From Verrucomicrobiia bacterium (lineage in GTDB: Bacteria; Verrucomicrobiota; Verrucomicrobiia; Verrucomicrobiales; DEV007), in the NCBI GenBank assembly GCA_020439945.1, contig JAGRPB010000004.1, forward strand, positions 10,307-74,306: a DNA stretch of 64,000 nucleotides, in the 5' to 3' direction. Made by a program: the position numbers and the translations under genes. The notes under the pieces are model-generated. The model saw only the letters and a list, made by a program, of their open reading frames with translations, did no database searches and was not told the origin of the DNA. This document shows positions 1,163 to 64,000 of the stretch, in pieces. Position 1 is the first letter of the stretch, and every line of letters begins with the position of its first letter.

Positions 1163-1166
1163 ACTC

Positions 1167-3530: not shown

Positions 3531-3552
3531 ACTCCCTCCCTCCCTCTTTCCC

Positions 3553-38483: not shown

Positions 38484-38560
<77 letters not shown>

Positions 38561-47600: not shown

Positions 47601-48215
47601 GGCACGAGCGATGAATTTTTCCAGGAACACGCCGCCCTCGCCGAAATTGGCGGCGCTCAATCGGGTGACCGATTCGAAGGCGTCGGCGAGTTCCGCCGCA
47701 TTTTGGCACACCTGGATACCGATCCCGCCACCGCCAGCCGAGCTTTTCAGCATGACCGGATACCCAATCACCTCGGCCTTCTCTGTGGCCTCTTCGAGCG
47801 TGGCCAACAACGAGGTACCTCGCAGCAACGGCACGTCGCTTTTTTCGGCCAGATCGCGGGCCTCATGCTTGAGACCAAAGGCTCGGATTTGATCCGCGGT
47901 CGGACCGATGAATGCCACTCCGGCGGCTTCACATCGACCGGCGAAAGTCGTGCTTTCACTGAGGAGACCATAACCCGGATGAACCGCCTCGGCTCCGGAC
48001 TCGGCCAGGACTTCCATGAGCCGATTCTGGTTCAGGTAGCTGTCTTTGACCGGCGCCGGTCCCAGGCAATAGGCTTCGTCCGCCAACGCCACATGCGGCG
48101 ATTCGCGATCCGCCTCCGAGTATACCGCCACCGAAGCGACGCCCATCTTGTGGAGCGTGGCCAGGATGCGGCAGGCGATTTCTCCGCGGTTGGCGACGAG
48201 AACTTTGGTAAACAT
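44613..48215 (-). CDS. Biotin-dependent urea carboxylase family enzyme; gene context suggests guanidine carboxylase
   Basis: 1200 aa. N-terminal biotin carboxylase ([16 protein letters not shown]), central KipA/KipI-type domains, and a C-terminal biotinyl motif EAMKTE. Confidence 0.92.
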
Positions 48216-48251: not shown

Positions 48252-48887
48252 TCAGTCCCAGATCAACACCTGCACCGGGGTCGGATTGTAAGCGTTGCAG
48301 GGGTTATTGAGCTGCGGGCAGTTGCTGATCAGGGCGATCACGTCGCGCTCCGCCCGCATTTCCACGTAGCGCCCGGGTGCGGAGATACCGTCCTCGAAGG
48401 TGAGCTTCCCTTCAGGCGTCACCGGCACATTCATGAAAAAGTTGATGTTGCAGGTGATGTCGCGTTTGCCCATGCCGTGGCCCCAGCCGTTCACTCCGTT
48501 GATGAAGCTGTCGCGGCAGGCGTGCATGTGCTCTTTCTCCAGCGCGTAGCGCATGGTGTTACTCTCGCGCGAACAGGCGCCACCGAGGGTGTCGTGTCGC
48601 CCGCAAGTGTCGGCCACGATGGTGAGCAGGGCGTCGCCACCGGTGGACATCAATCGGGTGTCGGTAGTCAGGTAGAGATTTCGCTGTGCCCGAATCGTGT
48701 CGCAGGCGCTGTAGCGATTATCGACGTTGTGAGCGTCGTAAAACAGAGTGTCGGCGGCCTGATTGCCCTCCAGATCGACGATGCGAAAATACTGGCCCGC
48801 CTTGATCTCGTGCATCCAGTGATCGCCGGCGAGAACGGTGAAGTCGTAGATCGCGTCTGCCGGATCGAGTTGGCTTTCGGTTAACAT
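48252..48887 (-). CDS. DUF1989 urea-carboxylase-associated protein (carboxyguanidine deiminase subunit type)
   Basis: 211 aa. Motifs [20 protein letters not shown] and [22 protein letters not shown]. Confidence 0.85.
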
Positions 48888-48931: not shown

Positions 48932-49663
48932 TCAGTCACGAAGCCGGTAGTAGTTCTCGGTATTGAGGAAGGCTCGTTCGTTTTCCGGGCGGGAAAGGCG
49001 GCAGGGATCATCGGCTGCGGCGGGTTCCCCGGCGAAGACTTCGAGTTTTACCGGCTTCGGCGCCCAGGTGGTCGTCGGGTCGAGTGGATGCGGGCAGGTG
49101 TTGAGCACCACCAGCGTCTTCATTTCGAAGCGGAGATCGATCGAGTCGCCCGCCTTCACGTTTTCCGGGGAGAGCGAGAGGTTGCCCGCTTCATCGGGCA
49201 CGACCTGGCTGAACCAGTTCAAGTTCGGCACCAGGTCCTTCTGACCGAGCCCCCATTTCGCCAGTTCGATGAGGAAGTTTTCCTTTCCGTTCCGGACGAA
49301 GTCGTTCCGGCACGCTTGGTAGTTCATCGCTTCACCGTATTGCTCGAGAACCTGAGCCTCATCGGTGCATCCGCAAACGGTGTCGTGCCAACCCCGGGTG
49401 TCGTTGACGATGGAACAGAAAATCCGGCCCATGTCGGAGTGCACGCAGAGCGGCGAGGTCAGAAAGAAGACGTGCTGCCCCTTGAGCGTGTCGGGCATGT
49501 TGTAACGCTCAACCATTTGGTCAGCGTTGTAGAGAAGCATGGAGACATTGGCGCCGCCTTCGAGATCGGTCAGTCGCAGCGTTTTGCCACGGCCGATGAC
49601 CTGCGACCACATGCCGCCGCCGTGAATTTCCGTTTCGTAGATGGGTGTCTCGGATGAACTCAT
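48932..49663 (-). CDS. DUF1989 urea-carboxylase-associated protein (second carboxyguanidine deiminase subunit type)
   Basis: 243 aa. Motifs [20 protein letters not shown] and [16 protein letters not shown]. Confidence 0.85.
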
Positions 49664-49691: not shown

Positions 49692-50141
49692 TCAACGTCG
49701 GGACTCGTTTGGAAACGGATGGATCGGCGGCAGGAGCATCGACATCATCACGAGGCGGCCTGACTTCACGCCCTTACAGGTGATCAGCTTGTCAGCGATC
49801 ATTTTCAGTCGCCTTGCCGGTCCCTGGACGAGGATGACTTCCATGGTGTGATTCTCCTCCAGCAGTATGTGCTGCGAGCTGATGACCTCGTTGATGTACT
49901 CGCGCTCGATCGAGGCCAACTGCTGCAACAAGCCGGGCTTCGACTCGTCGTAGAACAGCGTGATGGTTCCCGCCATCATCTCGGTTCCTCGCTGCTTGTA
50001 GTGCTCGATGAGGCTCGCGTTGATCATCTCGGCCACCGCCTGGGAACGATTAGTGAAACCGCGCGCCTTCACGAGATTGTCCAACTCGCGATAGACTCCG
50101 GCCGGAAGTGATACGCTGATTCTTTTGACGCCTTTTTCCAC
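49692..50141 (-). CDS. NikR-family ribbon-helix-helix transcriptional regulator (metal site apparently non-canonical)
   Basis: GTG start. The N-terminus RISVSLPAGVYRELDNLVKARGFTNRSQAV aligns with E. coli NikR [30 protein letters not shown]. An ACT-like C-domain is present. It lies 28 nt upstream of the DUF1989 gene. Confidence 0.8.
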   Translation of the reverse strand: MEKGVKRISVSLPAGVYRELDNLVKARGFTNRSQAVAEMINASLIEHYKQRGTEMMAGTITLFYDESKPGLLQQLASIEREYINEVISSQHILLEENHTMEVILVQGPARRLKMIADKLITCKGVKSGRLVMMSMLLPPIHPFPNESRR

Positions 50142-50197: not shown

Positions 50198-50225
50198 GTA
50201 ATACTTTTTTCTAAAATCGTATTAC
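50198..50225. promoter_or_regulatory. 28-bp dyad GTAATAC-N14-GTATTAC, candidate NikR-type operator
   Basis: Perfect 7-bp inverted arms at 50198-50204 and 50219-50225 with an AT-rich spacer, 57-84 nt upstream of the regulator's GTG. Same overall span as the E. coli nik operator GTATGA-N16-TCATAC. Confidence 0.45.
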
Positions 50226-50241
50226 TCACTGCGACAACTCC

Positions 50242-51081
50242 TCACATTCCTTTTCCAAACCACTCGCGAAGCTGGCGACCCATCCACGCATTCACCTCCC
50301 AGAGATCGGCGACGGGTTTCCGGGTGTAGGGCTCCAGGTGAAGGTAGCCGTCGGTCCCGAACTCGGGCGTCATGGTGGTGATTTCACACTCGCTGTCCTC
50401 TCGCAGATTCCAGATGACCTCCCACCACGCTCGATGGCTGGCGACTGCCTCGGCGTATTCCGGAGCACGCGGATCGGGCACCTGCGGCCCCTGGTCGTAG
50501 CCGACCCGCGCATGCACGTGGCGGCATCGGCTGGCAATGAAAGCGAGCATCACCAAATCGTCGTTCATCACCAATCTCTCAGTCACACAACACCAGTGAC
50601 TGAAGTCGCAGGTGATCGACAGATCGGGTACCGCTTCGAGAATTTCCCGTGTCACCCAGGGATGAAACATGGAGCGACTCCGATGCGTCTCGACGGAGAT
50701 GGGAATGCCATACTCGCTTTCCAAATCCAGGATGCGCCGGTGAAACTCGATCTGCATTTCGAGATTCCAGGCGTCCAATCCGGCCTGCGTGTTCACGAAT
50801 CGGGGCTTCAGCGGCAGACTCCTTTCGATTCCCTCCCGAAGATCCTCGAGGTGATCCCCTGGGTGCGCCGTCGGATCGGGAACATAATTGCCGCCGGTCG
50901 TCACTTCGGCGATCAGAGACAGACCCGACTCTTTGAGTAGAGCACCGAAGCGTTTCCTTTTGCCGGGATCCGCCGGGACCGGACCTTCGATCCCGTCAAA
51001 TCCCGCCTCGATTGCTTGGCTGATGGCGTCTTCGATCGAACCGACGTGTCCCCACAGCGGTTTGTAGATTTCCAGTTTCAT
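50242..51081 (-). CDS. Xylose-isomerase-like TIM-barrel protein (sugar phosphate isomerase/epimerase family)
   Basis: 279 aa with the family pattern GFDGIE...HRSRSMFH...CDFSHW. Confidence 0.78.
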   Translation of the reverse strand: MKLEIYKPLWGHVGSIEDAISQAIEAGFDGIEGPVPADPGKRKRFGALLKESGLSLIAEVTTGGNYVPDPTAHPGDHLEDLREGIERSLPLKPRFVNTQAGLDAWNLEMQIEFHRRILDLESEYGIPISVETHRSRSMFHPWVTREILEAVPDLSITCDFSHWCCVTERLVMNDDLVMLAFIASRCRHVHARVGYDQGPQVPDPRAPEYAEAVASHRAWWEVIWNLREDSECEITTMTPEFGTDGYLHLEPYTRKPVADLWEVNAWMGRQLREWFGKGM

Positions 51082-51087
51082 GGGGGT

Positions 51088-51765
51088 TCAATGGGCGCAT
51101 CGACACTCTGTTACAACTCGAAAGCCTAGATTGTCCCGTCGCGTCTCCGGTCGCAAGGCGTCGCGCCAACTGCTTCTAAGCATGCGCGGCAAATAGTCCC
51201 AGGCTCCCCCGCGCACCACGCGGCGGGTGTCGTCCCCGACCGCCTCGTCCGACCAATTCGACCGCCAGTTGTCGGCGGTCCATTCGCTGACATTCCCGTG
51301 CATGTCGTGGAGTCCGAATGGGTTGGCGTCGTAGCAGCCCACCGGCAGCAATTGGCCGGGTCCGACTCGGCGGCCATCTTCGGAGTAAAGAAAGTTCGCC
51401 TGAGCGGTTTCGATCATCATGCCGGTATGAAACGGAGTCTCCGTGCCACCACGGCATGCATACTCCCATTCCGATTCCGTCGGTAGCCGCCAGATTTTTC
51501 CGGACTTCTCGGTAAGCCATTCGCAATAGCCCACCGCATCGAACCAGGAGACTCGCGTGACCGGCAGTTCCGGATTGCAGTCGCCCCGGCCATTCTGCTT
51601 CCACGCCTGCCAGTCTTCCACGGTGATCGGACAGATCGACATGCGAAACGGTTGATCGATCACGATTTCACCTCGCGGCAACTCGGTCGCGTTGACGAAT
51701 TTGTCGTCCGGTCCCCCGCCCCGAACGCTGCGTCCGGCGGGTATCTCGATGCAGGCCGGAATCAT
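51088..51765 (-). CDS. Formylglycine-generating-enzyme (SUMF1/FGE) fold protein, cytoplasmic
   Basis: Motifs WRLPTESEWEYACRGGT, GLHDMHGNVSEWTAD and RVVRGGAW. No signal peptide. 4-bp overlap with the upstream gene. Confidence 0.85.
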   Translation of the reverse strand: MIPACIEIPAGRSVRGGGPDDKFVNATELPRGEIVIDQPFRMSICPITVEDWQAWKQNGRGDCNPELPVTRVSWFDAVGYCEWLTEKSGKIWRLPTESEWEYACRGGTETPFHTGMMIETAQANFLYSEDGRRVGPGQLLPVGCYDANPFGLHDMHGNVSEWTADNWRSNWSDEAVGDDTRRVVRGGAWDYLPRMLRSSWRDALRPETRRDNLGFRVVTECRCAH

Positions 51766-52655
51766 GCCTTGGCTCCTTTCGCGTCGAAATCAATTTCCCG
51801 GCGGACCTCTGGATAGCTCCGCACCCAGTCCGCAATTTGCGACCCTGTGGCGATCCAGGCATCGTCCGTCTCCATGATCCCGCTGACGAGGCGCTCGAGC
51901 AGCTGGACCCGCGATGGGCGGCCGCTCAGCCAGGGGTGCAGGGTCAGCACGAAGCAGCAGCCATAGTCGCGCATGGCCTCGAACTCGCGCCACCAGAGAC
52001 GGAAGACCTTGTCGCAATCCTCCGGAATGAAACCCCAGGCAGGATCGGCGTTGAAGGCGAACTGCTCCCAATCTTCCAGCATCCACTGCCCAGGGATTTC
52101 CACCAGCCCATTCTCGTGCTGGAACGGGGCGTCGTCGTTCATCATGCTGGCGTTGTAGGAAAAGCCATACTTCACCAACAGATCGGTCGTGCCCGGGTTG
52201 ATCTCGAACCAGGGCGCCCGGTATCCAATGGGTTTTCTTCCGAGTTGAGCTTCAAAGATCCCGAGACTTTTCACGAGCACGGCTTCCTCTTCCTCGGGTG
52301 AAAGCGTGGCCAGCTTTTCGTGCAGATGTCCGTGCGCCCCAATCTCGTGGCCCGCTGCTGCGACCGCCTCGGCCATGCGCGGGTGATTCTCCACGATCCA
52401 GGTCGGAATGAAAAACGTCGCTGGGACTTCGAGATGATCGAGCAGTCCCAACAACCTGGGCACCCCAACGCGGGGACCGTAGGCGCATTGGGACATCGTG
52501 GTGACCCGGTTTTTCAACTCAAGATCCTCGGATAGCGCGGTGGTTTCGCCATCGACATCGAAGCAAAGCATCACCGCGCAGCGCTTCCCTTCCGGCCAGA
52601 GAAACCTCGGCTCGGGCAGATAGGGACGAAAGGGCGTGAAACGGTTGAGATCCAT
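51762..52655 (-). CDS. Polysaccharide-deacetylase-fold hydrolase (PuuE-allantoinase-like family)
   Basis: Start at the ATG at 52655 (MDLNRF...). Motifs CFDVDGE, ATFFIP and GHEIGAHGHLHE. Confidence 0.8.
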   Translation of the reverse strand: MDLNRFTPFRPYLPEPRFLWPEGKRCAVMLCFDVDGETTALSEDLELKNRVTTMSQCAYGPRVGVPRLLGLLDHLEVPATFFIPTWIVENHPRMAEAVAAAGHEIGAHGHLHEKLATLSPEEEEAVLVKSLGIFEAQLGRKPIGYRAPWFEINPGTTDLLVKYGFSYNASMMNDDAPFQHENGLVEIPGQWMLEDWEQFAFNADPAWGFIPEDCDKVFRLWWREFEAMRDYGCCFVLTLHPWLSGRPSRVQLLERLVSGIMETDDAWIATGSQIADWVRSYPEVRREIDFDAKGAKA

Positions 52656-52671
52656 TTTCGGAAAAATGCGT

Positions 52672-53445
52672 TCAGTCGGTCCAGGAACCACCCGCCACGT
52701 TCGCGGGCGCGACGGTGTCGTATCGGGCCCAGCCGGCCATGATGCCGCCATCGACCGGGAGGACGGCTCCGGTGACGTAGGAGGCGTCATCCGAAGCAAG
52801 AAAGTGAAAGGCGGCAGCGATCTCTTCAGGTTTCGCGAGCCTACCCAGCGGCGTGCGCTCTTCCATAAAAGGGATCTCCGGATTGTCCGGTATCTCCATC
52901 ACCGCCGGGGTGAGGACGGTGCCGGGGCAGACGCAGTTCACGGTGATGCCACGCGGCGCCAACTCCATGGCGGCGACCTTGGTCAGGTGAACGATGGCCG
53001 CTTTCGACGTTCCATAGACCGAAGCTCCGGGAAGTCCCAGAACTCCCGAATAGGAAGCCGTATTGACGATCCGCCCGCCGCGTTCCATCAGGCGAGCGGC
53101 ATGCTTGATGCCATAAGCCACGCCATTCACGTTCACGGCAAAGGTCCGCTCCATCAGGCTCGGCGTGAGATCGTCGAAACCGACTCCGAGCGGCTGGATG
53201 GCGGCGTTGTTGACGAGAATGTCGAGGCGACCGGATTCGGCGTAAACCTGCTTCAGGGCAGCCTCGACACCGGCCTCGTCGGAGACATCCACCTCGATCC
53301 CCGAGGCCCCCTCGGGCAAGTCGCCGGGACATCGGTCGAGCACCGTTACCGATGCCCCGGCGTTGAGATACCTTTCCACGATGGCACGCCCGATTCCCGA
53401 TCCGCCGCCAGTGACGGCCGCCGTTTTTCGAGCCAGGCTGAACAT
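52672..53445 (-). CDS. Short-chain dehydrogenase/reductase (SDR)
   Basis: Cofactor motif TGGGSGIGRA and catalytic YGTSKAA. Confidence 0.9.
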   Translation of the reverse strand: MFSLARKTAAVTGGGSGIGRAIVERYLNAGASVTVLDRCPGDLPEGASGIEVDVSDEAGVEAALKQVYAESGRLDILVNNAAIQPLGVGFDDLTPSLMERTFAVNVNGVAYGIKHAARLMERGGRIVNTASYSGVLGLPGASVYGTSKAAIVHLTKVAAMELAPRGITVNCVCPGTVLTPAVMEIPDNPEIPFMEERTPLGRLAKPEEIAAAFHFLASDDASYVTGAVLPVDGGIMAGWARYDTVAPANVAGGSWTD

Positions 53446-53466
53446 CGCGGGAAACCTGTGCGGTGA

Positions 53467-54855
53467 TCAGGCAGGACTGCCGATGAATTCCAGATCCGGT
53501 CGCTGGGAAGCCGCCGGTTCGCGATCCAACGTGGGCCAGGTACCGCGCGAACGAGCCGCGAGATAGCGCTGGATCATCCAGATCGGCATTTCCAGGTGAC
53601 TAAGCCTTCCTCGCTGATAGCCCGACGAGTAGTAGCCGCGCTGGACCGCCATGCAGACTTCCATGTCCTCCAAGTGGAACGACACCGCTTGGCCGATTCC
53701 CTTCTCCAGCATGGCGTCGAAGTCCGGATGTTTCACTGACGATTTCGGCACCAGCATGGTGGTCGTCAGCTTGATCCGGTCCGGTCCCAGCGGTTGAGTG
53801 CGATACCAGATGGCGCAATCCGCCGTGACGAGGAACTTGAACATGGGGAAGCCGAGAAACAGCCCCCACTCGAAGCGGTCTTCGCCGGTCACGTCGGGGA
53901 TCGGCGGGAAAGTATCCCACTGTTCCCCGCGACCCTCCATGGCCGCGATCTCATCGCGAATCGCCGGTTTCAGCGGGAGGTGGCACTTGATGTAGTGCGC
54001 CTTTTCCTGCTCGGTCCAGGTGTCCTTCGCCGGCATCATCGGCTGCAGCGTCTTGCTGTGCGCACCGGCGTGGTGATAGGATTCCATGAAGTTCTCGGTC
54101 AGGACTTTCCAGTTGAACGGACAATCCCATTCGCGAGCCATGACCAGTTCCATGTCGGCGAGATTCCACCGTTCGAGGTGCTTGCCGAGGCCTTCATACT
54201 GCTCGGCGACGGACTTGGGCGCATCGCCGTCGAGATTGACGAAGATGAACCCATTCCACACCTCGCTGCGGTAGGTCTTGAGCCCCCACTCGTCGCGATT
54301 GAAACCGCGAGCCTCCTGCATTTCGGCGCAGGCTTTCAGTTTGCCGTCCAGTTCGAAGGTCCACGAGTGGTAGGGACAGAGCAGCAGCCGGGTGTGACCG
54401 CAGTCCGCCTTGCCGTCCCGCGCCTCGGCGGGATGATGGCCATCGTGACCGAACCCGGGAGGCATGATGTCCATGCCACGATGCGGACAGACGCGTGAAT
54501 GAATCTGGATATCGCCGCTCTTGTCGCGAATCACCAGAAGCGGTTCGCCGAGCAGATCGACATTCATGAAATCGCCGATCTCGGGAATCTGCGACACGTG
54601 CGCCAGGCAGAGCCATTCCTTGCGAAAGACATTCTCGACTTCCCAGTCAAAGAACTCCTGCGAGGTGTAGGCCTGGGCCGGGAGCGTGATGCTATCGACG
54701 AACGGCAGATCGGCCGCCCGCTGGATTTCCGCGAGAATGTCATCGACCGACATCTCGGGAAGCGCGCTCCGAGTGCCGGAGCGGTGGGAGAATTGGAGCG
54801 GATCCGTCGGGGCCGAACAGGCCTTGCGGATCTCGCCTTCCGTGACTTTAACCAT
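53467..54855 (-). CDS. Rieske [2Fe-2S] non-heme-iron oxygenase, alpha subunit, with an enlarged Rieske loop
   Basis: Start at the ATG at 54855. Cluster ligands are CPHRG ... CPYHSW. The C-terminal catalytic domain has FMESYHHAGAH. Confidence 0.85.
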   Translation of the reverse strand: MVKVTEGEIRKACSAPTDPLQFSHRSGTRSALPEMSVDDILAEIQRAADLPFVDSITLPAQAYTSQEFFDWEVENVFRKEWLCLAHVSQIPEIGDFMNVDLLGEPLLVIRDKSGDIQIHSRVCPHRGMDIMPPGFGHDGHHPAEARDGKADCGHTRLLLCPYHSWTFELDGKLKACAEMQEARGFNRDEWGLKTYRSEVWNGFIFVNLDGDAPKSVAEQYEGLGKHLERWNLADMELVMAREWDCPFNWKVLTENFMESYHHAGAHSKTLQPMMPAKDTWTEQEKAHYIKCHLPLKPAIRDEIAAMEGRGEQWDTFPPIPDVTGEDRFEWGLFLGFPMFKFLVTADCAIWYRTQPLGPDRIKLTTTMLVPKSSVKHPDFDAMLEKGIGQAVSFHLEDMEVCMAVQRGYYSSGYQRGRLSHLEMPIWMIQRYLAARSRGTWPTLDREPAASQRPDLEFIGSPA

Positions 54856-55106
54856 GATTTTGTGAAGTAAAGCTTGAAAGATGAAGACTGTTTGTTGACG
54901 AGCGCGGCACGATTTTCGCCCGCGATCGAAAGAGAAAGGGAGAGATCGCTCGCGCTCAGCAGCCCAGAAAGACGAAGCTGCAGAGAGTGATGCCCAAGGC
55001 GCGCAATGCCTCCCGGCCATCACTGGCCGTCGCCTTGCGTGGAGATCCCTTTTTCATCTTCATTTCCAGAAATTCACGAAACCTTCCATCGCCCAATCAC
55101 GCGCCG

Positions 55107-56318
55107 TCACTTTCCGTAGCCTGACTCTGCCAGTGATTTCATCGGACCGAAGGCGATGCCTGCCTCGGGCGGGTGATTCTCTTTGCAGACTCCGAACTTC
55201 ACCCACCAATCGTTGGTGAGTTTCCAGTGATCCTTGATCTGGCCGTTTTTACCGACCGGCGGTTCCCCTCCCGTCACGCCCATGAAAGCGGATGATTCCG
55301 GCCAACCAAACACGTAGAGTCCCCCGTCCTTCGGTCCGCCATCGGCGCCAATCACGGCTTCGACATCCTTCACGTCGAACTGAATGGCCTTGGCAATGAT
55401 CTCGTTGGCTTCGGCAGTATTCGCTTTCCAGTAGGCCACGGCATCGAAATAGGCTTTCATCACTTTCGCCGCCAGTTCCGGTTTTCCATCGAGGAACGAT
55501 CCGCTCATGTACATCCCGTCGGCGAGCAAACCGGTCTCCTGATAATAGGCATCCTTGGAAGTCGATGCCACCTTGGCGCCTTCCAAGGTTTCCAGCACCT
55601 GCTGACCGAAGGGCTCCCAGAATTCCCCGCCCTGCACCTTGCCACTGACCATGGCGGCCACGGCGTCGTCCATAATGACGTTCACGTAGGAAACCTCATC
55701 GAATTTCACGCCGTTCTGTTCGAGAAATATCCCCATGTAAATCTGGGTCAATCCACCTTCCAGGACGGCAACCGATTTTCCTTTCAAGTCGGCACCGCCC
55801 TCGATGCCGGGCCCGAGCAGGATCTTGTCGGTCCCATAGGAAGCATTCGTGTAGCTCACGAGTTTGACCGGTACGCCTTCCTCGGCGGCGATGGGACCGT
55901 ATTCGACGGTGCTAGAAGTGACGTCCAACTGCCCCGCGCTCATGAGCCCGAAGCTTTCATAGGGATCTTCGATGATCTTGATATCGAGATCGAACCCATC
56001 CGTCAGTCCTTTTTCCTTCGCCACAAACCAGAAGCCGTAGCCGGGCCAGGAAAAGAGCGAAACACTCACGGTTTCAGTTTCTTCCTTCGGCGCCTCGGCG
56101 GGTTTCGACTCGGGTTCCGGTGTCGATTCAGCCTCGGGCGCAGGAGCCTCGGGCTTCGGTTCCTCCATTGGCTCAGGAGCAGCCACTTCAGCGGGCGCCT
56201 CAGGCTCAGCTTCAGGAGGCGTTCCCGAATCCGAACACGACGCTACTGAAAACAGGATGGCCAGTGAGAGACCAGCAAGAATTCTGGCAGACAGAAATAA
56301 CTGTCGAGTAAGTTTCAT
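55107..56318 (-). CDS. ABC transporter substrate-binding lipoprotein (NMT1/THI5, NitT/TauT family)
   Basis: Lipobox FSVASCS, a ~60-aa Pro/Glu/Ala-rich linker, then an NMT1-like binding domain. Confidence 0.82.
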   Translation of the reverse strand: MKLTRQLFLSARILAGLSLAILFSVASCSDSGTPPEAEPEAPAEVAAPEPMEEPKPEAPAPEAESTPEPESKPAEAPKEETETVSVSLFSWPGYGFWFVAKEKGLTDGFDLDIKIIEDPYESFGLMSAGQLDVTSSTVEYGPIAAEEGVPVKLVSYTNASYGTDKILLGPGIEGGADLKGKSVAVLEGGLTQIYMGIFLEQNGVKFDEVSYVNVIMDDAVAAMVSGKVQGGEFWEPFGQQVLETLEGAKVASTSKDAYYQETGLLADGMYMSGSFLDGKPELAAKVMKAYFDAVAYWKANTAEANEIIAKAIQFDVKDVEAVIGADGGPKDGGLYVFGWPESSAFMGVTGGEPPVGKNGQIKDHWKLTNDWWVKFGVCKENHPPEAGIAFGPMKSLAESGYGK

Positions 56319-56465
56319 CGAAGCAAATCAGGGGAAAATGGGGGCTTCGTTGAGTCCCTCTTCTGAAGCTTAAGACATGCCACTCCCCCTTGCTTCCCAT
56401 CTCAGGGGATTACCATTCCCCACCTGTGGTAATACCCGTAAACAGTTCGGGTATGAGCTGATTTG

Positions 56466-58145
56466 CTATTTCTGTTCCGGCCGCGATTTGGACCATTTCA
56501 GTTTCAACGGCATCGGAGCACCCTGGCTCCAAGTCCCTTCCATGGTCTTTCCGTCGATCTCGGCTTCGTAGCTTCCGTGAACGGTTTCAATCTTCAGTTC
56601 CAGTTGCCGTCCCTCGATTTTCAATTGATCCACTGAGAGCGCTCCGGGCATTTGGGTGGGGCTGTAGAGCCACGCCTCTCCGGCGTCTGCGACCGATTCG
56701 ATCTGGAGAATGACGAACAGGCCGCCTTTTCCCCCGATCATGCCTGACCAGAATCCGTTGATTGTCGATATGTCTCCATCGATCCGCTGTTTCAGGAACT
56801 CCGAAAGCTTGGGTGGAAGCTGCTCTGCGCGTTTCAAACTCAACGGCAGGGTGACGCCTTGTTCGAACTCCCCTGCCAGCAAGTCATCGGCAAACTTCCC
56901 GGTAAATTTGGCTCTGATGCCGGGGAATTCGGCCGTCAGCGTTGATCCATCGAAGGTAGCCGAGGTCGACGGTATCCCCTGCAAGGCTTGATCGAGGCTG
57001 TGAAGGACAACCTGGCCACTCTCCGATATCCGCAGGAATTGTCGCAACTCCACGCCGTTGGCATTCAAAGTGCCTGACCAGAATCCCGAGATCTTTTTGA
57101 AATCTCCTTCGACCTTTGTGCTCTGGGGAGGCTCAGCGCCATTGGTCAGCATGATCTCCGCAGTCCGGTTCTCCGGAGAAATCTTCAATTCGCTGCGAAA
57201 TCCGCCGGTTCCCCCGTTGTGCCAATAGCCCTTGTCACCATGGAACCACGCAAGGCCCATGTCATTCCTCGTCTCCCTCATGGCGAGATCCATGGCCGCA
57301 CGCAACTCGGTAGGCGTCGATTCATTCCAATGCGCAGTCGCAAATTTGGCCATGTCGGCGGCGGAAGAAACAATCGCGCCCGCGCCACAGAGCGCATCGA
57401 TGTGCCAGTGCGAGGTTTCTCTGCCTTCCGAATGACCGGTCGCAAATCGGCCTGCTGACTTCTTAGGCAAATCGCCCTTCGCTCGTTGCACAAAAGTCGA
57501 ATCCATTTCGAGGGGAGCGAGAATCGTTTTCGTCAGAAGCGCCTCATACGGCATTCCGGAAATGCGCTCAAGAATATGACCCAGCAATCCTACGCCGAGG
57601 TTCGAATAACTTTGCTTTCCCCTTTCTTCGAAGTCGGTTTCTTGAAAATTTTTCAGATACTCATGCAGATCATCCACGGAGTAGTTCGCGTAGGGATCTC
57701 CCGGATCCAGATCTTCGCTTTCGAGATTGCCGGGAAGTCTTGGTAATCCCGAGGTATGGGTCGCCAAATCAAGGAGCGTTACGGAAGCGAGTGGAGAATC
57801 CTTCGGCAAAACCGAATCCGGCAGGTGTTTTGCAATCGGATCATCGAGCGAAGCCTTCCCCCGTTGGACCTGATCCGCGAGCAGGATTCCGGTGAACACT
57901 TTCGTGATTGAACCAATCTCGAAAAGGGTATTCTCGTCCACCAGATCGCGATCTTTACCAAGTCTCCCCGCAGCAGCAAAAGTGGTCTCATCTCCCTCGA
58001 GTAGAGCCATCGCGACCCCTTCGTCGGGCTGCAGTTTCCCCTCCTGATAGCGCTTGGCTCTTTCCGTAAGCTCGTTCTCGTTCGCTTGAGCAGAGCAAGC
58101 CAGGAACAGGGCGACAAGCACTTGACCGATGAGCGGTTTCATCAT
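56466..58145 (-). CDS. Secreted beta-lactamase-fold serine hydrolase with two C-terminal repeat domains
   Basis: Start at ATGATG at 58145 (MMKPLIGQVLVALFLACSAQA). S-x-x-K motif FEIGSITKVF. The C-terminal ~190 aa hold two similar GFWSG... modules. Confidence 0.82.
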   Translation of the reverse strand: MMKPLIGQVLVALFLACSAQANENELTERAKRYQEGKLQPDEGVAMALLEGDETTFAAAGRLGKDRDLVDENTLFEIGSITKVFTGILLADQVQRGKASLDDPIAKHLPDSVLPKDSPLASVTLLDLATHTSGLPRLPGNLESEDLDPGDPYANYSVDDLHEYLKNFQETDFEERGKQSYSNLGVGLLGHILERISGMPYEALLTKTILAPLEMDSTFVQRAKGDLPKKSAGRFATGHSEGRETSHWHIDALCGAGAIVSSAADMAKFATAHWNESTPTELRAAMDLAMRETRNDMGLAWFHGDKGYWHNGGTGGFRSELKISPENRTAEIMLTNGAEPPQSTKVEGDFKKISGFWSGTLNANGVELRQFLRISESGQVVLHSLDQALQGIPSTSATFDGSTLTAEFPGIRAKFTGKFADDLLAGEFEQGVTLPLSLKRAEQLPPKLSEFLKQRIDGDISTINGFWSGMIGGKGGLFVILQIESVADAGEAWLYSPTQMPGALSVDQLKIEGRQLELKIETVHGSYEAEIDGKTMEGTWSQGAPMPLKLKWSKSRPEQK

Positions 58146-58237
58146 GGGATTGGTGATACTTTCTCCCGGTTTTGATCCCGAAAACAGGGAATAGCGAGCT
58201 CTTTTTCCGGTCGAACTGAATTGGTAGGAACTGCCGG

Positions 58238-59056
58238 TCATTTCCTTCCGTCACGAGCATACGGAAAACATCCCCAGCGAACGCCGCGAAGAATGGCGTC
58301 GGAAACCAGGCCGAGGACGCCGATGACGAGGATACCCGCCATGATCTCGTCAACGCGCACGAGACGCTTGGCGCGCATCATCATCGCGCCGATGCCGTCG
58401 GTGGCCGCGACGATTTCTGCAATGACAAGGTAGGTCCAACTGACCGCCAGCATTTGCCGAATGGTGTCCACATAAGTAGGAAGGGCCGAGCGAAAGACGA
58501 CCTTCAACAGGGCCTGACGACGATTGGCGCCCAGAGTTTGGGCCGATTCCACGAGATCTCGCGAGACAGCTCGGGTGTTGTCCATCAGCAAAGTGACGAG
58601 GAACCAGATCACTCCGAGAAACAACAGGGCCAGCTTCTGCATTTCTCCGGTGCCCAACCACATCAGCAAAAGAGGGACAAAAGACGGAGCCGGCAGATAG
58701 CGAAACGGCGAAATCAGCGGGTTCAATAGGTTCTCAGGAAAGGCGAACGCCCCCATCAAAAGCCCGAGCGGCAGCGCCACCACCACGGCCGCACCGAAAC
58801 TCAGAAGAATCCGGCGCAAGCTCACAAGCACATCCGCGCCGAATCCACGCTCACCAAAAAGTTCCGCCATCGCCCGCAGCACTTCCAGGGGCGACGGCAG
58901 AAGTCGAGGATTTGCCCAGCCACTGACCGACAGCAGGTGCCACCCAAGCAGGAAACTTCCCCAGGCGAGAAGACCGAGACCGAGTTTCCCTTTCCAGCCA
59001 ATGGGCTCGAAAAAGCGCCAACCAGGAATCAGGCGATGACGGGAAGGCGGAGTCAT
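58238..59056 (-). CDS. ABC transporter permease (NitT/TauT family)
   Basis: Start at the ATG at 59056. Six TM helices and an EAA-loop VESAQTLGANRRQALLKVVFRSALP. Confidence 0.85.
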   Translation of the reverse strand: MTPPSRHRLIPGWRFFEPIGWKGKLGLGLLAWGSFLLGWHLLSVSGWANPRLLPSPLEVLRAMAELFGERGFGADVLVSLRRILLSFGAAVVVALPLGLLMGAFAFPENLLNPLISPFRYLPAPSFVPLLLMWLGTGEMQKLALLFLGVIWFLVTLLMDNTRAVSRDLVESAQTLGANRRQALLKVVFRSALPTYVDTIRQMLAVSWTYLVIAEIVAATDGIGAMMMRAKRLVRVDEIMAGILVIGVLGLVSDAILRGVRWGCFPYARDGRK

Positions 59057-59073
59057 CGGTGTCAAAAAATCGC

Positions 59074-59643
59074 TCACTCGGGCTTCGACCAAGCCAACTG
59101 CCTCACCGCCGGATCGAGCGGCGTGTGGGCGATTCCGTTCGCGTAGTTGCTGATCAACTTCGTCGCGAGGCCGAGTACAATTTCCAAACCCTGCTCCGGT
59201 CCGTATCCCGCAGCGAGGAAGGCTTTCCATGACGCCTCGGGCGGGTGCCCGCGATGGGCGATCAGCTCACGAGTGTACACCCGGAGTGCTTCAAGTTTTT
59301 CGTCGGGAATTTCCGTTCCCTCTCGCAGCGCCGCGATCGCCTCGGCGGTCATGCCGGCCTTTTGCGCCAACAGGGTGTGCCAGGGCACGCAATAGGTGCA
59401 GTTGTTTTCAAAGTTGGCGGTCAAATAGACGACTTGGCGCTCGATCGGTGTCAGCGAGGTCTGATCAAACAGGGTCCAAAGCCGGACGTAACCCTCTAGG
59501 GTCGGCGGCGACGAGGCCAGAACCCTTTCCAGGTTCGGAATCATCCCGAAGTCCGCCGCCACTTCCTCCAACAGAGGCTGCGACGCCTCCGGAGCGGAAG
59601 CGAGATCGTGAAGCGGAAATTGTTCGGGATCGAAGCCAGCCAT
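59074..59643 (-). CDS. Carboxymuconolactone decarboxylase / AhpD-like family protein
   Basis: 189 aa with the AhpD-type motif NCTYCVPWH (CxxC...H). Confidence 0.8.
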   Translation of the reverse strand: MAGFDPEQFPLHDLASAPEASQPLLEEVAADFGMIPNLERVLASSPPTLEGYVRLWTLFDQTSLTPIERQVVYLTANFENNCTYCVPWHTLLAQKAGMTAEAIAALREGTEIPDEKLEALRVYTRELIAHRGHPPEASWKAFLAAGYGPEQGLEIVLGLATKLISNYANGIAHTPLDPAVRQLAWSKPE

Positions 59644-59646
59644 GAA

Positions 59647-61068
59647 TCACAGGAAGGTCAGCATGCGATCCAGTTGGTCGTCATGAATGGTATAGAAGTC
59701 GCGCTCCCAGTCGGTGGTCTTCTGCTTCAGATAGATCTCCTTCATTTCACCGAAAACCTCTCCAGCGAGTTCGTCTTCGTCAAAAGCCTCGATAGCGTGG
59801 CACAGGGTGGCGGGCAGAAAATCGATGCCGGACTGGCGGATCTGGCGCTTGCTCAGGTTATAGAGATTGTCATTTAGCGGCTCGCCCGGATCGAGCTCCT
59901 GCTCGATGCCTTCGAGACCGGCGGCGAGATGGAAGGCGGCGGCGAGATAGGGATTCACGCTCATGTCCGGCGCGCGATTCTCGAGACAGTACCGGTTCAG
60001 CGGCATCCGCATCATCGCCGAGCGATTGTTTCGACCATAAGCAATCAGCACCGGCGCCCAACTGACGTCGAGCATTTCCCCCTGCGCGATAAACCCCTGG
60101 TAACTGTTGTAGGTCGGCGATGTGACCGCGGTAAGGGCGGAGGCATGTTTCAACACCCCGGCCGCAAAGTGGTAAGCCATCTTCGACATCGGAATTCCAT
60201 ACTTCTCGATGAAGGGATTACCGCCCTCCTCCGGGGCGAAAGCGTTGCTGCCATCGGCGTCATTCTTCAGCGACATGTTGAAGTGGCAGCCCGAACGAAA
60301 ATCATCGGCAAAAGGCTTCGGTAGGAAGGTTGCCATGCAGCCGACGGACTCGGCGATCTTCTTGGCCATCAACCTGAGAAACACGAGCCGGTCGGACATG
60401 GTGAGCGCGTCAGCGTAGTCGCAGTCGAACTCGAATTGGCTGTGTCCGCCTTCCTGGTCAAAAGAATAAAGCCCCCAGCCCAGTTCCTGGAGTGCTTGGG
60501 AGAATGGCTCGAGGAAGTCCATTGCTCCCATCGCCTGGTAGACATCGTACGCCGGGCAGATGCCGCGATACTTCTGCGGTGAAAGCCCACTTCGCTCGCC
60601 GGTTTCGGGATCGATTCGAAACACATAAAACTCGGGTTCGACTCCCAGGTTGAAGGTAAACCCGAGCGATTTCGCCTTGTCCATCTGCCGCTTCAGGATC
60701 TGGCGGCTGTCGTTGGGATAGGGTTCACCATGGTAATAGAGATCGCCGAAAAAGTAGGCGAACCGCTTGTCCCACGGACAGACGATCATCGTGTCCAGAT
60801 CCGGCACAGCCGCACATTCATCCTCCTGCGGACCGACCAGGCCCATGCCTTCCATCGCGCCGACGGTGAACAGTTCCGAGCCGTTCGCCATTTTTTTCAG
60901 CGCGGACACAGGATTCACCTTCGCTTTCGGTGATCCGTGAACGTCGACATAGGTGGAAAGGAGATACTGAATATTGGCCGATTCGAGCTTGGCGGCGACC
61001 TGGTCCAGTTTTCCGGCATCGACTTCGAAGCCCTCGGGAACGGCAAAGGTGGGGTGAGAAGAACTCAT
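59647..61068 (-). CDS. Glutamine synthetase family protein (GlnA-like gamma-glutamyl ligase)
   Basis: 473 aa. Glutamine synthetase catalytic motifs FLPKPFADDFRSGCHFNMSL and NNRSAMMRMP. Confidence 0.85.
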   Translation of the reverse strand: MSSSHPTFAVPEGFEVDAGKLDQVAAKLESANIQYLLSTYVDVHGSPKAKVNPVSALKKMANGSELFTVGAMEGMGLVGPQEDECAAVPDLDTMIVCPWDKRFAYFFGDLYYHGEPYPNDSRQILKRQMDKAKSLGFTFNLGVEPEFYVFRIDPETGERSGLSPQKYRGICPAYDVYQAMGAMDFLEPFSQALQELGWGLYSFDQEGGHSQFEFDCDYADALTMSDRLVFLRLMAKKIAESVGCMATFLPKPFADDFRSGCHFNMSLKNDADGSNAFAPEEGGNPFIEKYGIPMSKMAYHFAAGVLKHASALTAVTSPTYNSYQGFIAQGEMLDVSWAPVLIAYGRNNRSAMMRMPLNRYCLENRAPDMSVNPYLAAAFHLAAGLEGIEQELDPGEPLNDNLYNLSKRQIRQSGIDFLPATLCHAIEAFDEDELAGEVFGEMKEIYLKQKTTDWERDFYTIHDDQLDRMLTFL

Positions 61069-61093
61069 GGTTTCGGGTAGGTAGAGTGAAAGT

Positions 61094-61915
61094 TCAGAGA
61101 ACCGGCATCCGCGACGACTCCAGCCATTCGGAGGGCGGCAGCGGAGGTTCTTCGGTCAAAGCGACCCGGATTTTCTCCGAGAGTGCGACGACCATCTTGG
61201 AAAAGAGCCAGGCCCCCTGCTCGGCGGTCCCCTCGCTCGGTTTGCCGGTGATCCCATTGAGACTGGTCTGCGATACGGGATGCGAGAAAACGGTACCGTC
61301 AGTGCGATCCGGATCGTCTTCGACGCGACTCATGTCGACGGTATCGGGCGCCAGATGAAGCATCAAATCGGTCTCGGCGCGGTTGGCGTGCAGATCTTCG
61401 GCATCCTCGAAGAAGTAATCCCGAATCGCCGGAGACAGGAGGAAGCTGTTGATCATGCCGATCTGGAATTTACCCAAATGGCGAAGCCTCAGCTGATCGA
61501 TGGCGACGCGAAGCACGGCGTCATTTCCGAAGTGGGAGTTCACGATGAGAAGCCGCTCCCACCCGGTCGCGACCATCCAATCGACGAGATCGAGGATGGA
61601 TTGAATGAAGGTGTCGTGACGCAATGAAAACGTCCCCGGCCATTTGCCCGTGTGGCCGGCGGAGACGGTGTAGGTCATCGTCGGCAGCAACGGCACGCCC
61701 GTCGCGGCGGAAGTAGCTTCCACGAGATGAGTAGCGATCACCGAGTCGGTATTTACCGGCAGGTGCGGCCCGTGTTGTTCGGTGGCGCCTGTCGGTAGCA
61801 GCAGCATTCTCATGCCGCTTTCCTGCAACTCGGCGATTTCCTTCCACGAAAGCCGATCGAGAGGCAGCGGCGAATTCCCATCGTTGGGCATGTCCGGTAA
61901 CGGGATAAAGCTCAC
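61094..61915 (-). CDS. Creatininase-family amidohydrolase
   Basis: Motif [24 protein letters not shown] start at 61915 overlaps the upstream stop (GTGA); the ATG at 61891 is the alternative. Confidence 0.85.
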
Positions 61916-62811
61916 TCGACTTCGTCACCCGCCATCGTCATTCGCGGAATCTCCACGCCCCCGCCTCCGCGTTGCTCTCTCGGATGGATGAGTTCGTTGA
62001 TCCGGTGCTTGGTGGCCAGGTATTCGGGATCGATGGCCTGATCGAGACTTCGAGGACGCGGCACCGGCACCTCGATGATTTCGTCAATCCGACCCGGCTT
62101 GGCTTTCAGCACGAGAATCCGGTCGGCGAGGAAGACCGCTTCATCGAGATCGTGAGTGATGAAGAGGATGGTGATGTCGATGTTCTTCCAGATCTGTAGC
62201 AAATACTCCTGCATCTGCGCGCGCGTCTGAGCATCGAGAGCACCAAAGGGCTCGTCCATGAGCAGGATGCGCGGTTGGTTGGCGAGGGCGCGGGCAATGG
62301 CAACGCGCTGTTTCATGCCGCCCGAGAGTTGGAAAGGATACGAATTCTCGAAATCGGAGAGTCCAACCATTTCGATCCACTGCCTCGCTTCCTGCTCGAC
62401 CGCCGTCCCGGTGCGACCGGCCATCTTCGGACCGAACATCACATTCTGCTTCACCGTGAGCCACGGAAAGAGCGTGTAGGATTGGAAGACCATGCCGCGA
62501 TCCGGCCCGGGCCCGTGAACGACTTTCCCATCGAGCAGCAACTCGCCCGACGTCGGTTGTTCGAGTCCGGAAAGAATCCTGATGAGCGTGGATTTCCCGC
62601 AGCCCGACTGACCGATGACACACATGAACTCCCGGCGATAAACGTCGAAGTCGAGCCCCTGAAGCGCTGTTACGGTGCCCTCGGTCGAACCGAAAGTCTT
62701 TCCCAAGCCCCGCACCGAAAGGACCACGGGACGTTGCTTGAGTTTTCGGAATCGCTCGGCGACAGCCGGAGATTGCTCGCGGTAGTCCGGCAGAGTGGCA
62801 ACGGCAGTCAT
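61912..62811 (-). CDS. ABC transporter ATP-binding protein (NitT/TauT family)
   Basis: Start at the ATG at 62811 (ATGA overlap with the permease stop). Walker [10 protein letters not shown], signature [14 protein letters not shown], Walker [13 protein letters not shown]. Confidence 0.92.
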
Positions 62812-64000
62812 GAGGGAATCTTGTCGAGGCTGATGTTGTCCGCCGGTTCGGGCGCGTGGTTTCTCGGGCGGCTCAGATCCGGCGGCAGCCGATCGTTCGC
62901 GGCCGCAACCAGCCAGCGGGGAAACCACGTGATCGCCCGGCCCACGATGCTCGGCTTGCGATTCTGGTTCCCTTCCGCGTAGGGAAAGAGAATCCGGTGC
63001 AGCCAGGCCAAAACCTGGTCCGTGAAAAAGCCCATCATTCCAATGAGGATGATCACGGGAAACACCCGGTCGAAATTCCGCCACCGACCCTGGGTTTCGA
63101 TCAGTTCGGTGAGTCCGCTCTTCACTCCGATCAGTTCGGCGATCACCAGCCATGTCCACGCCCAGCCGAGGAGGATGCGGAGATCGTTGTAGAGGTTGGG
63201 CATGATGCCGGGGATCACCACCTTGGTCACCAGTTGGCGTTGCTTGGCGCCAAGCGTTTGCGCGGCTTCGAGGAGCGACACGTCGAGCAGGCGCGTCGTC
63301 TTGGCGATGACGAGCACCATCTGGAAAAGGGTGCCTACCACTACCAGGGCCACCTTGGGCGCGTCATTCGCCGCGAACAGAGCCACCAGCAGCGTGCTGA
63401 AAGCCGGCGCCGGCATGTAGCGGAAGAAATCGACGAAGGGTTCGAAAAGCTTCGAGAAAAACTGGTAGGTCCCACAGAGGACCCCCAGCGGGAGACCGAT
63501 CAGACAGGAAATGAGAAAGCCGCCGAACACGATCTTGACCGAGTGCGCGAGGCGATCGGTCATCGATGGCTGGTTCTCATCGACCTCGCGCTGAAACTCC
63601 TTGATTCCCATCACGACCACCTCGTGCGGAGGCGGCAGGTAATCCGGGTTCGAGGGCGCCCCCTGGGGAATCATCTGGGCAAAGGGCTGCGTCGGGTATT
63701 GGTCGGAATCGTAGGTGGGCGACGCCGCCGACATGATCTCCCAGTTCTCCCTGGCAATGGCAAGATTCTCGTCAGTCAGTTCCGGCCTGGTGGAAACCTT
63801 CTCGCCCGTGGCGAGGTCGCGCCAGATTCCGTAGATGGCCTCGTCATCGGTGGCCTGATCTTCCGTCAGCCAGCCGTTGGCAATCGCGATCGGAACGACC
63901 TGCCGGAGCAGTTTCTTGTTGGCGCGCGAGGAAAAGGTTTCTCCTCCGGCTCGGCGTTCCCGGATCGAGACGTTCTGCGTGCGAACGGCCTCCTGAAACT
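62808..64000 (-). CDS. ABC transporter permease (NitT/TauT family); reading frame stays open to the window edge
   Basis: EAA-loop [25 protein letters not shown]. My hand translation of 63735-64000 continues in the same frame with no stop and protein-like composition (…[30 protein letters not shown]…ENWEIM). The true start may therefore be 63611, 63734 or beyond 64000. Confidence 0.8.

Follow-up and report, generated by a model that had tools for sequence, protein, structure and literature searches.

Predicted feeder modules for substituted guanidines in front of a guanidine-carboxylase operon of Verrucomicrobiota, with a putative shared NikR-family regulator

Introduction

Guanidine has only recently been recognised as a widespread source of nitrogen, its natural precursors are largely unknown, and guanidine carboxylase operons are usually, albeit not universally, controlled by a guanidine-I riboswitch. 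What, then, is the role of a long row of importer and enzyme genes directly in front of such an operon? The question is raised by a 64,000-nt stretch of contig JAGRPB010000004.1 (assembly GCA_020439945.1) of a Verrucomicrobiia bacterium, here called the window, in which the gene array runs from position 50242 to the end and is followed, in the direction of transcription, by the carboxylase operon. An earlier reading of the sequence alone (the sequence-only reading) had proposed that the two together import an N-rich cyclic-amide or guanidino compound and pass guanidine or urea to the carboxylase.

Our answer, to which we give a probability of about 0.55, is that feeder modules have been added to a guanidine-carboxylase core, that these would serve the oxidative dealkylation of substituted guanidines, and that the whole is one NikR-family regulon. 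The function would probably be the use of substituted guanidines as a nitrogen source.

Results

A conserved array in front of the carboxylase core

The catabolic core consists of four genes, each scoring above the cut-off of its NCBIfam model:

48932-49663, minus strand: CgdA-type DUF1989 protein (UAAP1; TIGR03425, 326.7 bits, cut-off 205.95)
48252-48887, minus strand: CgdB-type DUF1989 protein (UAAP2; TIGR03424, 332.5 bits, cut-off 284.7)
44613-48215, minus strand: biotin-dependent urea/guanidine carboxylase (TIGR02712, 1849.5 bits, cut-off 1303.85)
42827-44602, minus strand: allophanate hydrolase (AH; TIGR02713, 759.5 bits, cut-off 511.05), with Amidase and AH_C domains

The core route would run from an ABC importer via the carboxylase and the carboxyguanidine deiminase CgdAB to allophanate hydrolase, and Schneider et al. 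are said to have found in 2020 that CgdAB-type genes mark the use of guanidine rather than urea.

Related loci (numbered L002 and upwards) were collected by a ligase-anchored scan of a genome collection, which gave 80 loci that were searched by tblastn with the 19 proteins of the window under thresholds for coverage and identity, and by an independent metagenome scan anchored on the TIM-barrel enzyme of the array (TIM). Most loci are metagenome-assembled genomes (MAGs) or metagenome contigs, and counts among relatives refer to Verrucomicrobiota loci with enough flanking sequence (n = 17 or 27). The same co-directional order was present in about 20 Verrucomicrobiota genomes, spread over Verrucomicrobiales, Opitutaceae, Chthoniobacterales and Spartobacteria: substrate-binding protein (SBP)-A, permease 1, ATPase, creatininase-fold hydrolase, glutamine synthetase (GS)-like ligase, (CMD), (permease 2 and SBP-B), Rieske oxygenase, short-chain dehydrogenase/reductase (SDR), deacetylase-fold hydrolase, FGE-fold protein, TIM, NikR-like regulator, CgdA, CgdB, carboxylase and AH. 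Matches were co-directional in 290 of 297 cases. This conserved order, the recovery of the same partners by the TIM-anchored scan and the presence of a single operator motif bear out the proposal that the extra enzymes and the carboxylase module are one unit, and the array is not a chance juxtaposition.

The loci form a modular series, of which the window is among the largest versions. Kiritimatiellia have only SBP–permease–ATPase–NikR-like–CgdA–CgdB–carboxylase, in the Lentimonas isolates the NikR-like gene is divergent from SBP-A–permease–ATPase–creatininase-fold–type III GS–CgdA–CgdB–carboxylase, and Luteolibacter algae adds permease 2–SBP-B–FGE–TIM–Rieske and a dienelactone-hydrolase (DLH)-type hydrolase. 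A literature search, which missed most subscription journals, gave no description of this cluster or of a NikR-type regulator of guanidine catabolism.

A NikR-family regulator and its predicted operator

Between the array and the core lies a regulatory gene, and two sites in the array resemble its operator:

49692-50141, minus strand: NikR-family regulator with RHH and NikR_C domains (PF01402, PF08753; NF003381, 111.9 bits, cut-off 105)
50198-50225, strand not applicable: predicted operator, a perfect palindrome GTAATAC-N14-GTATTAC in the 100-nt gap before the NikR-like gene
56407-56457, strand not applicable: second predicted operator, three GTAWTAC half-sites 15 nt apart with one mismatch, in the 147-nt gap before the SBP-B gene

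The sequence-only reading was right about the family of the regulator, but a canonical nickel sensor it is not: when aligned to solved NikR structures, the ligand positions H-H-H-C read R-H-L-T, so that three of the four ligands are replaced. The positions are similar in 12 orthologues, and the full four-ligand set was found in none of the 120 nearest NikR-like homologues. The protein has a cysteine in a TCKG motif and a conserved C-terminal PPIHP extension, and its gene always adjoins DUF1989/carboxylase genes. Judged by these residues, nickel bound at the canonical site is an unlikely effector.

Scans for the operator allowed at most one mismatch, with expectations derived from shuffled sequences, and found exactly two sites in the 64 kb of the window, where 0.025 would be expected. 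The half-sites are palindromes in themselves, and the consensus is GTAWTAC-N14/15-GTAWTAC; the second operator comprises 56407-56435 plus a third half-site at 56451-56457, and in L002, the closest relative, a weaker copy occupies the corresponding position. The Verrucomicrobiota loci (526 kb) contain 22 sites, each of them either before the NikR-like gene, as in 9 loci, or before SBP-A, with which the array starts, as in 11 loci, and there were none in the non-Verrucomicrobiota loci (812 kb). In the TIM-anchored loci (753 kb) nearly all of the 27 sites are at cluster promoters, the exceptions being an unassigned site in L110 and a site about 1 kb upstream of TIM in L156. It is the half-sites that are conserved, with divergent spacers between them, both in nine genome loci and in further metagenome loci, and operator-like sites are also present in the Lentimonas and Kiritimatiellia loci. 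An Rfam search of positions 40000-64000 (E ≤ 1) gave no guanidine riboswitch or other RNA family, and no guanidine riboswitch was found in the scanned Verrucomicrobiota loci.

The shared operator and the lost nickel ligands are best explained if a NikR-derived regulator without a canonical nickel site controls the array together with the carboxylase operon as a single regulon; it would act as repressor of both.

TIM, alternating oxygenases and the link with methylguanidine

The last gene of the array before the regulator encodes the anchor of the metagenome scan:

50242-51081, minus strand: divergent xylose-isomerase-like TIM-barrel enzyme, TIM (PF01261, AP_endonuc_2, 47 bits)

A PDB sequence search gave no match for TIM. 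Its AlphaFold2 model (pLDDT 93) has best Foldseek TM-scores of about 0.6-0.67, to epimerases, dehydratases and C-glycoside lyases, which are generic xylose-isomerase-like barrels from which no function can be transferred. The gene is present in 15 of 17 relatives, and is the accessory gene found in the smallest carboxylase-linked clusters. Among TIM-anchored loci of at least 7 kb (n = 40), 34 have cluster partners and 24 have the carboxylase core in the available DNA. The minimal layouts include SBP-A–permease–ATPase–TIM–NikR-like–CgdAB, and divergent SBP-A and TIM genes with the operator between them, and L099 has ABC–TIM–NikR-like–CgdAB. Five marine loci contain only TIM–permease 2–SBP-B–ATPase, an arrangement that points to a role for TIM in converting the compound imported via SBP-B, or a later product of it.

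Depending on the lineage, the TIM family is found beside three non-homologous oxygenases, namely the Rieske oxygenase with its FGE-fold partner, a fatty acid (FA)-desaturase-type di-iron oxygenase, or a 2-oxoglutarate (2OG)/Fe(II) dioxygenase. The FA-desaturase-type enzyme adjoins TIM in Halopseudomonas laoshanensis, Thiomicrorhabdus and a contig labelled Anaerolineales, the latter also having the creatininase-fold/GS pair and a MOSC protein. In three high-GC contigs (L150, L153 and L157) TIM is followed by the 2OG/Fe(II) dioxygenase directly before CgdA–CgdB–carboxylase–AH–permease–ATPase, and in L150 the TIM–2OG pair is bracketed by two guanidine-I riboswitches (9228-9367 on the minus strand and 12432-12566 on the plus strand), with L153 and L157 contributing gene order only. 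No 2OG-FeII_Oxy domain was detected by Pfam and NCBIfam searches among the array proteins of the window.

The pairing of an oxygenase with a second enzyme has a precedent in Vreelandella boliviensis, in which MgdH and MgdL extend a guanidine carboxylase operon to methylguanidine: MgdH is a hydroxylase of methylguanidine, and N-(hydroxymethyl)guanidine, an unusually stable compound, is resolved by the lyase MgdL (Sinn et al. 2025, PMC12508155). The MgdL sequence from Supplementary Data 1 of PMC12508155 was used for tblastn-searches of the window and all 169 loci. Homologues with the catalytic D49/R51 motif (ADIRLPA) were found in a Phycisphaerales MAG (L049, 4950-5681, plus strand, beside FGE and Rieske genes), a Devosia MAG (L052, 350-979, minus strand, beside a guanidine-I riboswitch) and a Neomegalonema MAG (L044, 12557-13021, minus strand). 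Neither the window nor any TIM-positive locus has an MgdL homologue, and tblastn gave no match to TIM in L049, L052 or L044. From this complementary distribution, together with the pairing with oxygenases, we propose that TIM may resolve a hydroxylated guanidine intermediate.

Two side observations concern these clusters. In L168, which has an FA-desaturase–TIM–ABC cluster, the creatininase-fold/GS pair of that cluster is followed by a MOSC-domain protein (16866-17735, plus strand); the MOSC family includes reductases of N-hydroxylated compounds, which hints at N-oxygenated intermediates. The hydrolase beside the oxygenase and TIM also varies, being an AiiA-like metallo-beta-lactamase-fold lactonase in Thiomicrorhabdus, of the dienelactone-hydrolase type in Luteolibacter and of the deacetylase fold in the window (variable hydrolases at L079, 5351-6136, and L083, 9147-9926, both on the plus strand).

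The Rieske oxygenase and its neighbours

Four further enzymes are encoded upstream of TIM:

53467-54855, minus strand: alpha-only Rieske oxygenase of the GbcA/CntA/Stc2 type, with Rieske and Ring_hydroxyl_A domains
52672-53445, minus strand: short-chain dehydrogenase/reductase (adh_short_C2, 214 bits)
51762-52655, minus strand: polysaccharide-deacetylase-fold metallohydrolase of the de-N-acylase type (PF01522)
51088-51765, minus strand: short FGE-fold protein without signal peptide (PF03781, 156 bits; closest to PvdO, 5hha)

The Rieske gene is present in all 17 relatives, some of which carry a second Rieske paralogue. The best-matching family is GbcA, at 143.5 bits far below the cut-off of 670, and its best matches among solved structures are to CntA and Stc2; alignment with CntA shows that the ligands of the Rieske cluster and the mononuclear iron (CPH…CPYH and E-x3-H-x4-H) are kept. 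These nearest relatives, GbcA, CntA and Stc2, are N-demethylating or C–N-cleaving enzymes. In 33 of 34 cases a Rieske gene lies no more than 3.5 kb from the FGE-fold gene (15/17 relatives), and in our own reading of the PvdO alignment its product is without copper-binding cysteine in the C-terminal region. A few relatives also carry a LuxR gene.

The SDR and deacetylase-fold genes are each present in 13 of 17 relatives. For the deacetylase-fold protein the best solved structures are 3rxz, a functionally uncharacterised protein of M. smegmatis (248 bits), and the Helicobacter pylori PgdA HP0310 (131 bits). The "PuuE-like" label of the sequence-only reading proved weak and the allantoin reading was rejected, as TIGR03212 scored 81.7 bits against a cut-off of 424.6.

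The creatininase-fold hydrolase, the GS-like ligase and the CMD protein

The first enzymes after the ATPase in the direction of transcription are:

61094-61915, minus strand: creatininase-fold binuclear metallohydrolase (PF02633, 205 bits)
59647-61068, minus strand: glutamine-synthetase-like ligase, paralogue GS1 (Gln-synt_C, 270 bits)
59074-59643, minus strand: CMD/AhpD-like protein with CxxC (Pfam CMD, TIGR01926)

The creatininase-fold gene, present in 26 of 27 relatives, has a GS-like gene within 2.5 kb in all of 56 cases. Its product keeps the equivalents of the metal ligands and catalytic histidine (E34, H36, D45, H120, H178 and E183), whereas the creatinine-binding residues of the Pseudomonas putida enzyme are lost (Y121F, E122G, W154 in a gap and W174 not conserved), and it scores 125.3 bits with the TIGR04448 equivalog, below the cut-off of 235. 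The label "creatininase" was thus too specific: the protein is not a bona fide creatininase, and is probably an amidohydrolase for another substrate. A lead to a Mycobacterium smegmatis "creatininase" presumably concerns the mycofactocin cluster.

GS1 falls short of the type III GS/GmaS equivalog TIGR03105 (434.5 bits, cut-off 469.6), and among solved structures it is closest to those of two glutamate–methylamine ligases, 9qur (283 bits) and 7cql, which makes gamma-glutamylation by GS1 plausible. GS1 is identical to a protein of a Verrucomicrobiae MAG; exact-sequence look-ups gave no entry for either GS1 or the ATPase of the window. Searches of a plasmid collection returned only GlnT-type ligases with at most 40% identity to GS1, and no annotated reference cluster. 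Many relatives carry a second GS-like gene that is not in the window, encoding a true TIGR03105 member (618 bits) about 42% identical to GS1 (L004, L009, L014, L016, L018, L022, L023, L025, L027 and L045). The CMD/AhpD-like gene is a variable accessory gene (6/17 relatives).

Importer genes, junctions and surroundings

The remaining genes of the array encode two permeases, one ATPase, a binding protein and a secreted hydrolase:

62808-64000, minus strand, incomplete and running off the end of the window: NitT/TauT permease 1 (Pfam BPD_transp_1; 62808-63734 and onwards)
61912-62811, minus strand: ABC ATPase (Pfam ABC_tran; NtrCD-type subfamily model, 254 bits)
58238-59056, minus strand: NitT/TauT permease 2 (BPD_transp_1)
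56466-58145, minus strand: secreted beta-lactamase-fold serine hydrolase (PF00144, signal peptide)
55107-56318, minus strand: NMT1/SsuA-like substrate-binding lipoprotein SBP-B (Pfam NMT1; SsuA_fam, 89 bits)

The sequence-only reading had placed a permease at the head of the array; the family was correct, but the array does not start there. The reading frame of permease 1 is stop-free from 63735 to 64000 and its translation is conserved in 22 relatives, hence gene and array extend past the window. In relatives the permease is about 460 aa long and is preceded by the gene for another NitT/TauT binding protein, SBP-A, for which the best family is the urea-carboxylase-associated SBP TIGR03427 (171 bits, below cut-off). 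The array has one ATPase for two permeases, with permease 1 present in 25 and the ATPase in 24 of 27 relatives. Permease 2 co-occurs with SBP-B (8/17 relatives), a lipoprotein with lipobox VASC and a Pro/Glu/Ala-rich linker, for which a PDB sequence search gave no close solved structure.

Start codons were refined using alternative starts and signal sequences, which placed them at 62811 (ATPase), 59056 (permease 2), 58145 (beta-lactamase-fold hydrolase), 54855 (Rieske oxygenase) and 52655 (deacetylase-fold hydrolase). The architecture given earlier was reproduced throughout: in the list of open reading frames (ORFs), every long ORF with family support between 41748 and 64000 is on the minus strand, Pfam and NCBIfam searches support the gene order and every domain label given to the array genes, and the recomputed junctions comprise 4-nt ATGA/GTGA overlaps at 62808, 61912 and 51762, short gaps of 3-25 nt, and long gaps of 92, 147, 251 and 100 nt.

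One gene has to be taken out of the array as it was first drawn. The beta-lactamase-fold gene, situated between permease 2 and SBP-B, was found in none of the 17 relatives with sufficient flanking sequence and in none of the 80 genome loci, and lies in the stretch with the lowest GC content of the window (0.547); it resembles a recent insertion, and is probably lineage-specific and outside the pathway. Downstream of the core, PdxA (41748-42770) passes its own equivalog cut-off, shows no synteny in relatives and is probably unrelated to the array. The part before 41.7 kb, analysed by the ORF list and a tRNA scan only, showed nothing that ties it functionally to the array; it includes an unrelated tRNA-Pro (CGG) gene (38484-38560, plus strand) in a lower-GC stretch (0.559), and three co-directional ORFs (327-4839, plus strand) that by eye resemble the ABC ATPase, large permease and periplasmic adaptor of an export system. 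In Opitutaceae, genes resembling those of a urea ABC transporter are located directly upstream of the cluster (L022, about 300-4300; L045, about 400-2900), and L022 has a match to the model of the 5' ureB small RNA, which marks a urease region; this genome probably has urease as well as the carboxylase.

Discussion

A proposed route and the points that weigh against it

Directly observed are the genes and their conservation, the operator that they share, the missing nickel ligands, the modular series, and the associations with riboswitches and MgdL in homologous clusters; from these we infer every chemical step, the substrate and the effector of the regulator. Permease 2 and SBP-B would first import an N-substituted guanidine, with methylated or N-alkylated guanidines as leading candidates. 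Methylated guanidines lead because of the affinities with MgdL and with N-demethylases, and other N-alkyl guanidines, such as guanidino acids and taurocyamine, are further, less favoured candidates. The Rieske oxygenase with its FGE-fold partner would then hydroxylate the carbon next to the guanidino nitrogen, and TIM, as a functional analogue of MgdL, would resolve the hydroxylated intermediate to free guanidine; alternatively or additionally, the SDR might oxidise the intermediate and the deacetylase-fold hydrolase remove the resulting acyl group. The guanidine would be mineralised by the carboxylase pathway. The obligate pair of GS-like ligase and creatininase-fold hydrolase could attach gamma-glutamate to an amine or guanidine and remove it again, as in aniline dioxygenase systems, or could serve in buffering or in the capture of methylamine or ammonia set free in the route.

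Guanidine-I riboswitches and MgdL homologues in homologous clusters thus favour one of the two options of the sequence-only reading, a guanidino-type substrate that ends as guanidine. The other, a cyclic amide, found no specific support, given the residues and score of the creatininase-fold protein and the weak match to PuuE. As the sequence-only reading stated, sequence does not suffice to name the substrate; the choice has only been narrowed.

Several points weigh against the proposed route. The enzyme activities in the array are all predictions, and so are the operator and the binding of the NikR-like protein to it. The preference of the carboxylase for guanidine over urea is deduced solely from the CgdAB-type genes. 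The term lyase for TIM is an analogy, the enzyme being without a close relative in sequence or structure, and its complementarity with MgdL comes from three loci. TIM is found with an ABC importer and without a carboxylase within 10 kb in the five marine loci, Halopseudomonas and L168, while the creatininase-fold/GS pair of Lentimonas is present without an oxygenase in the operon, which speaks against a pure tag–oxidise–untag role. Finally, no reductase gene or domain for the Rieske oxygenase was detected by Pfam and NCBIfam searches among the 19 proteins of the array and carboxylase operon, and an FMN-reductase-like gene is present in only four relatives.

Alternative explanations

The main rival, which we hold to be possible yet clearly the less probable reading, is a co-regulated nitrogen island with parallel modules that do not feed one another, one for guanidine, one for methylamine or other alkylamines via the GmaS-like ligases, and one for the oxidation of an unrelated amine, betaine or sulfonate imported via SBP-B. 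The modules are indeed found apart, as TIM–permease 2–SBP-B–ATPase alone and as a creatininase-fold/GS pair without oxygenase, and many proteobacterial creatininase-fold/GS/Rieske loci are without carboxylase in the available DNA. GS1 resembles glutamate–methylamine ligase, SBP-B is closest to sulfonate-binding proteins, and the urease and urt genes adjoining the cluster in Opitutaceae suggest a general nitrogen island. Against this, accessory genes are located within the guanidine operon itself, between transporter and CgdAB, or between two guanidine riboswitches; homologues of MgdL, which is specific for a guanidine hemiaminal, occur in homologous clusters; and one operator is common to all units.

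A pathway for creatinine or creatine, in which creatininase opens creatinine, the oxygenase and hydrolases make methylguanidine or guanidine and the carboxylase finishes, was considered on account of the creatininase fold, of old reports and abiotic chemistry that tie creatinine to methylguanidine (cited in PMC12508155), and of the N-demethylase-type Rieske oxygenase, which would suit creatine. It is improbable and was rejected on the residue and hidden Markov model evidence, as the equivalog score is 125 instead of 235 bits and the creatinine-sandwiching W154, W174, E122 and Y121 are absent or changed, and there is no creatinase present.

Least probable of all, by a little, is a nickel-sparing urea route, in which a nickel-sensing NikR-like protein turns on a nickel-free urea carboxylase when urease is unmetallated and the upstream enzymes are passengers: the NCBIfam NikR model is passed (111.9 vs 105), the operator architecture is NikR-like, urease genes adjoin in Opitutaceae, and the conserved histidine, the TCKG cysteine and the C-terminal PPIH could form another metal site, but three of four nickel ligands are replaced (with the full set in 0/120 nearest homologues), CgdAB-type genes are reported to mark guanidine and not urea use, and copies of the operator stand before the feeder units and TIM as well.

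Meaning of the preferred reading

If feeder modules do supply the guanidine-carboxylase core, the array would provide candidate enzymes for the conversion of substituted guanidines to guanidine, including a TIM-barrel family without characterised member, and two binding proteins whose ligands would name the substrates. The regulator apparently repurposes the NikR scaffold in the role of the guanidine riboswitches. The cluster is conserved in many environmental Verrucomicrobiota, with relatives in Planctomycetota and Proteobacteria, and cultured carriers are Luteolibacter algae, Lentimonas, Opitutaceae MBA3-11 and Halopseudomonas laoshanensis. A bolder version, which we consider doubtful and put forward tentatively, is that in bacteria of the Planctomycetota–Verrucomicrobiota–Chlamydiota (PVC) group a NikR-derived sensor of guanidine or another small molecule has replaced the riboswitches and controls a novel route, made up of Rieske/FGE, TIM and gamma-glutamyl ligase/creatininase-fold enzymes, that frees guanidine from N-alkylated guanidines; should this hold, the regulator would be the first guanidine-sensing protein, and guanidine biology would gain several enzyme activities that are new to it.

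Comparison with known systems

The regulator is like NikR in its RHH and NikR_C domains, in its similarity to Pyrococcus horikoshii NikR (111 bits, E = 3e-31) and in having operator half-sites about two helical turns apart, and unlike it in its R-H-L-T nickel site and in a regulon of guanidine catabolism instead of nickel uptake. The Rieske oxygenase has its best family and structure matches in GbcA, CntA and Stc2 and shares their metal ligands, whereas its C-terminal catalytic domain is not alignable, no reductase adjoins it, and it is always paired with an FGE-fold protein.

AtdA1 and AtdA2 are the ligase/hydrolase pair of the aniline dioxygenase systems. The pair of the window resembles it. 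In these systems (AtdA1-A5/TdnQTA1A2B), and in other gamma-glutamyl-tag pathways (Ipu, Puu), a GS-like ligase, a hydrolase and a Rieske oxygenase are encoded together as in the window, and the trio recurs across phyla. The window differs in that its hydrolase is of the creatininase fold instead of GATase, its oxygenase is alpha-only and without small-subunit or reductase gene (Pfam and NCBIfam searches gave GATase, small-subunit and reductase domains in 0 of the 19 proteins), its ligase is closest to GmaS, and there is no aromatic-ring pathway.

With guanidine carboxylase operons the window shares all four catabolic genes above their NCBIfam cut-offs and a NitT/TauT importer, and the SBP of the relatives is closest to TIGR03427. 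It differs from them in having a nickel-site-less NikR-family protein and a palindromic operator in the place of the riboswitch, and up to eleven extra genes between the importer and the catabolic genes. The MgdH/MgdL operon is alike in that a hydroxylase and a second enzyme are added so that a substituted guanidine yields guanidine, and is connected to the present clusters by the MgdL homologues in Planctomycetota and Alphaproteobacteria and by the 2OG oxygenase next to TIM in the riboswitch-controlled L150 operon, whereas the window instead has the Rieske oxygenase with its FGE-fold partner, TIM, an SDR, a deacetylase-fold hydrolase, a GS-like ligase and a creatininase-fold hydrolase.

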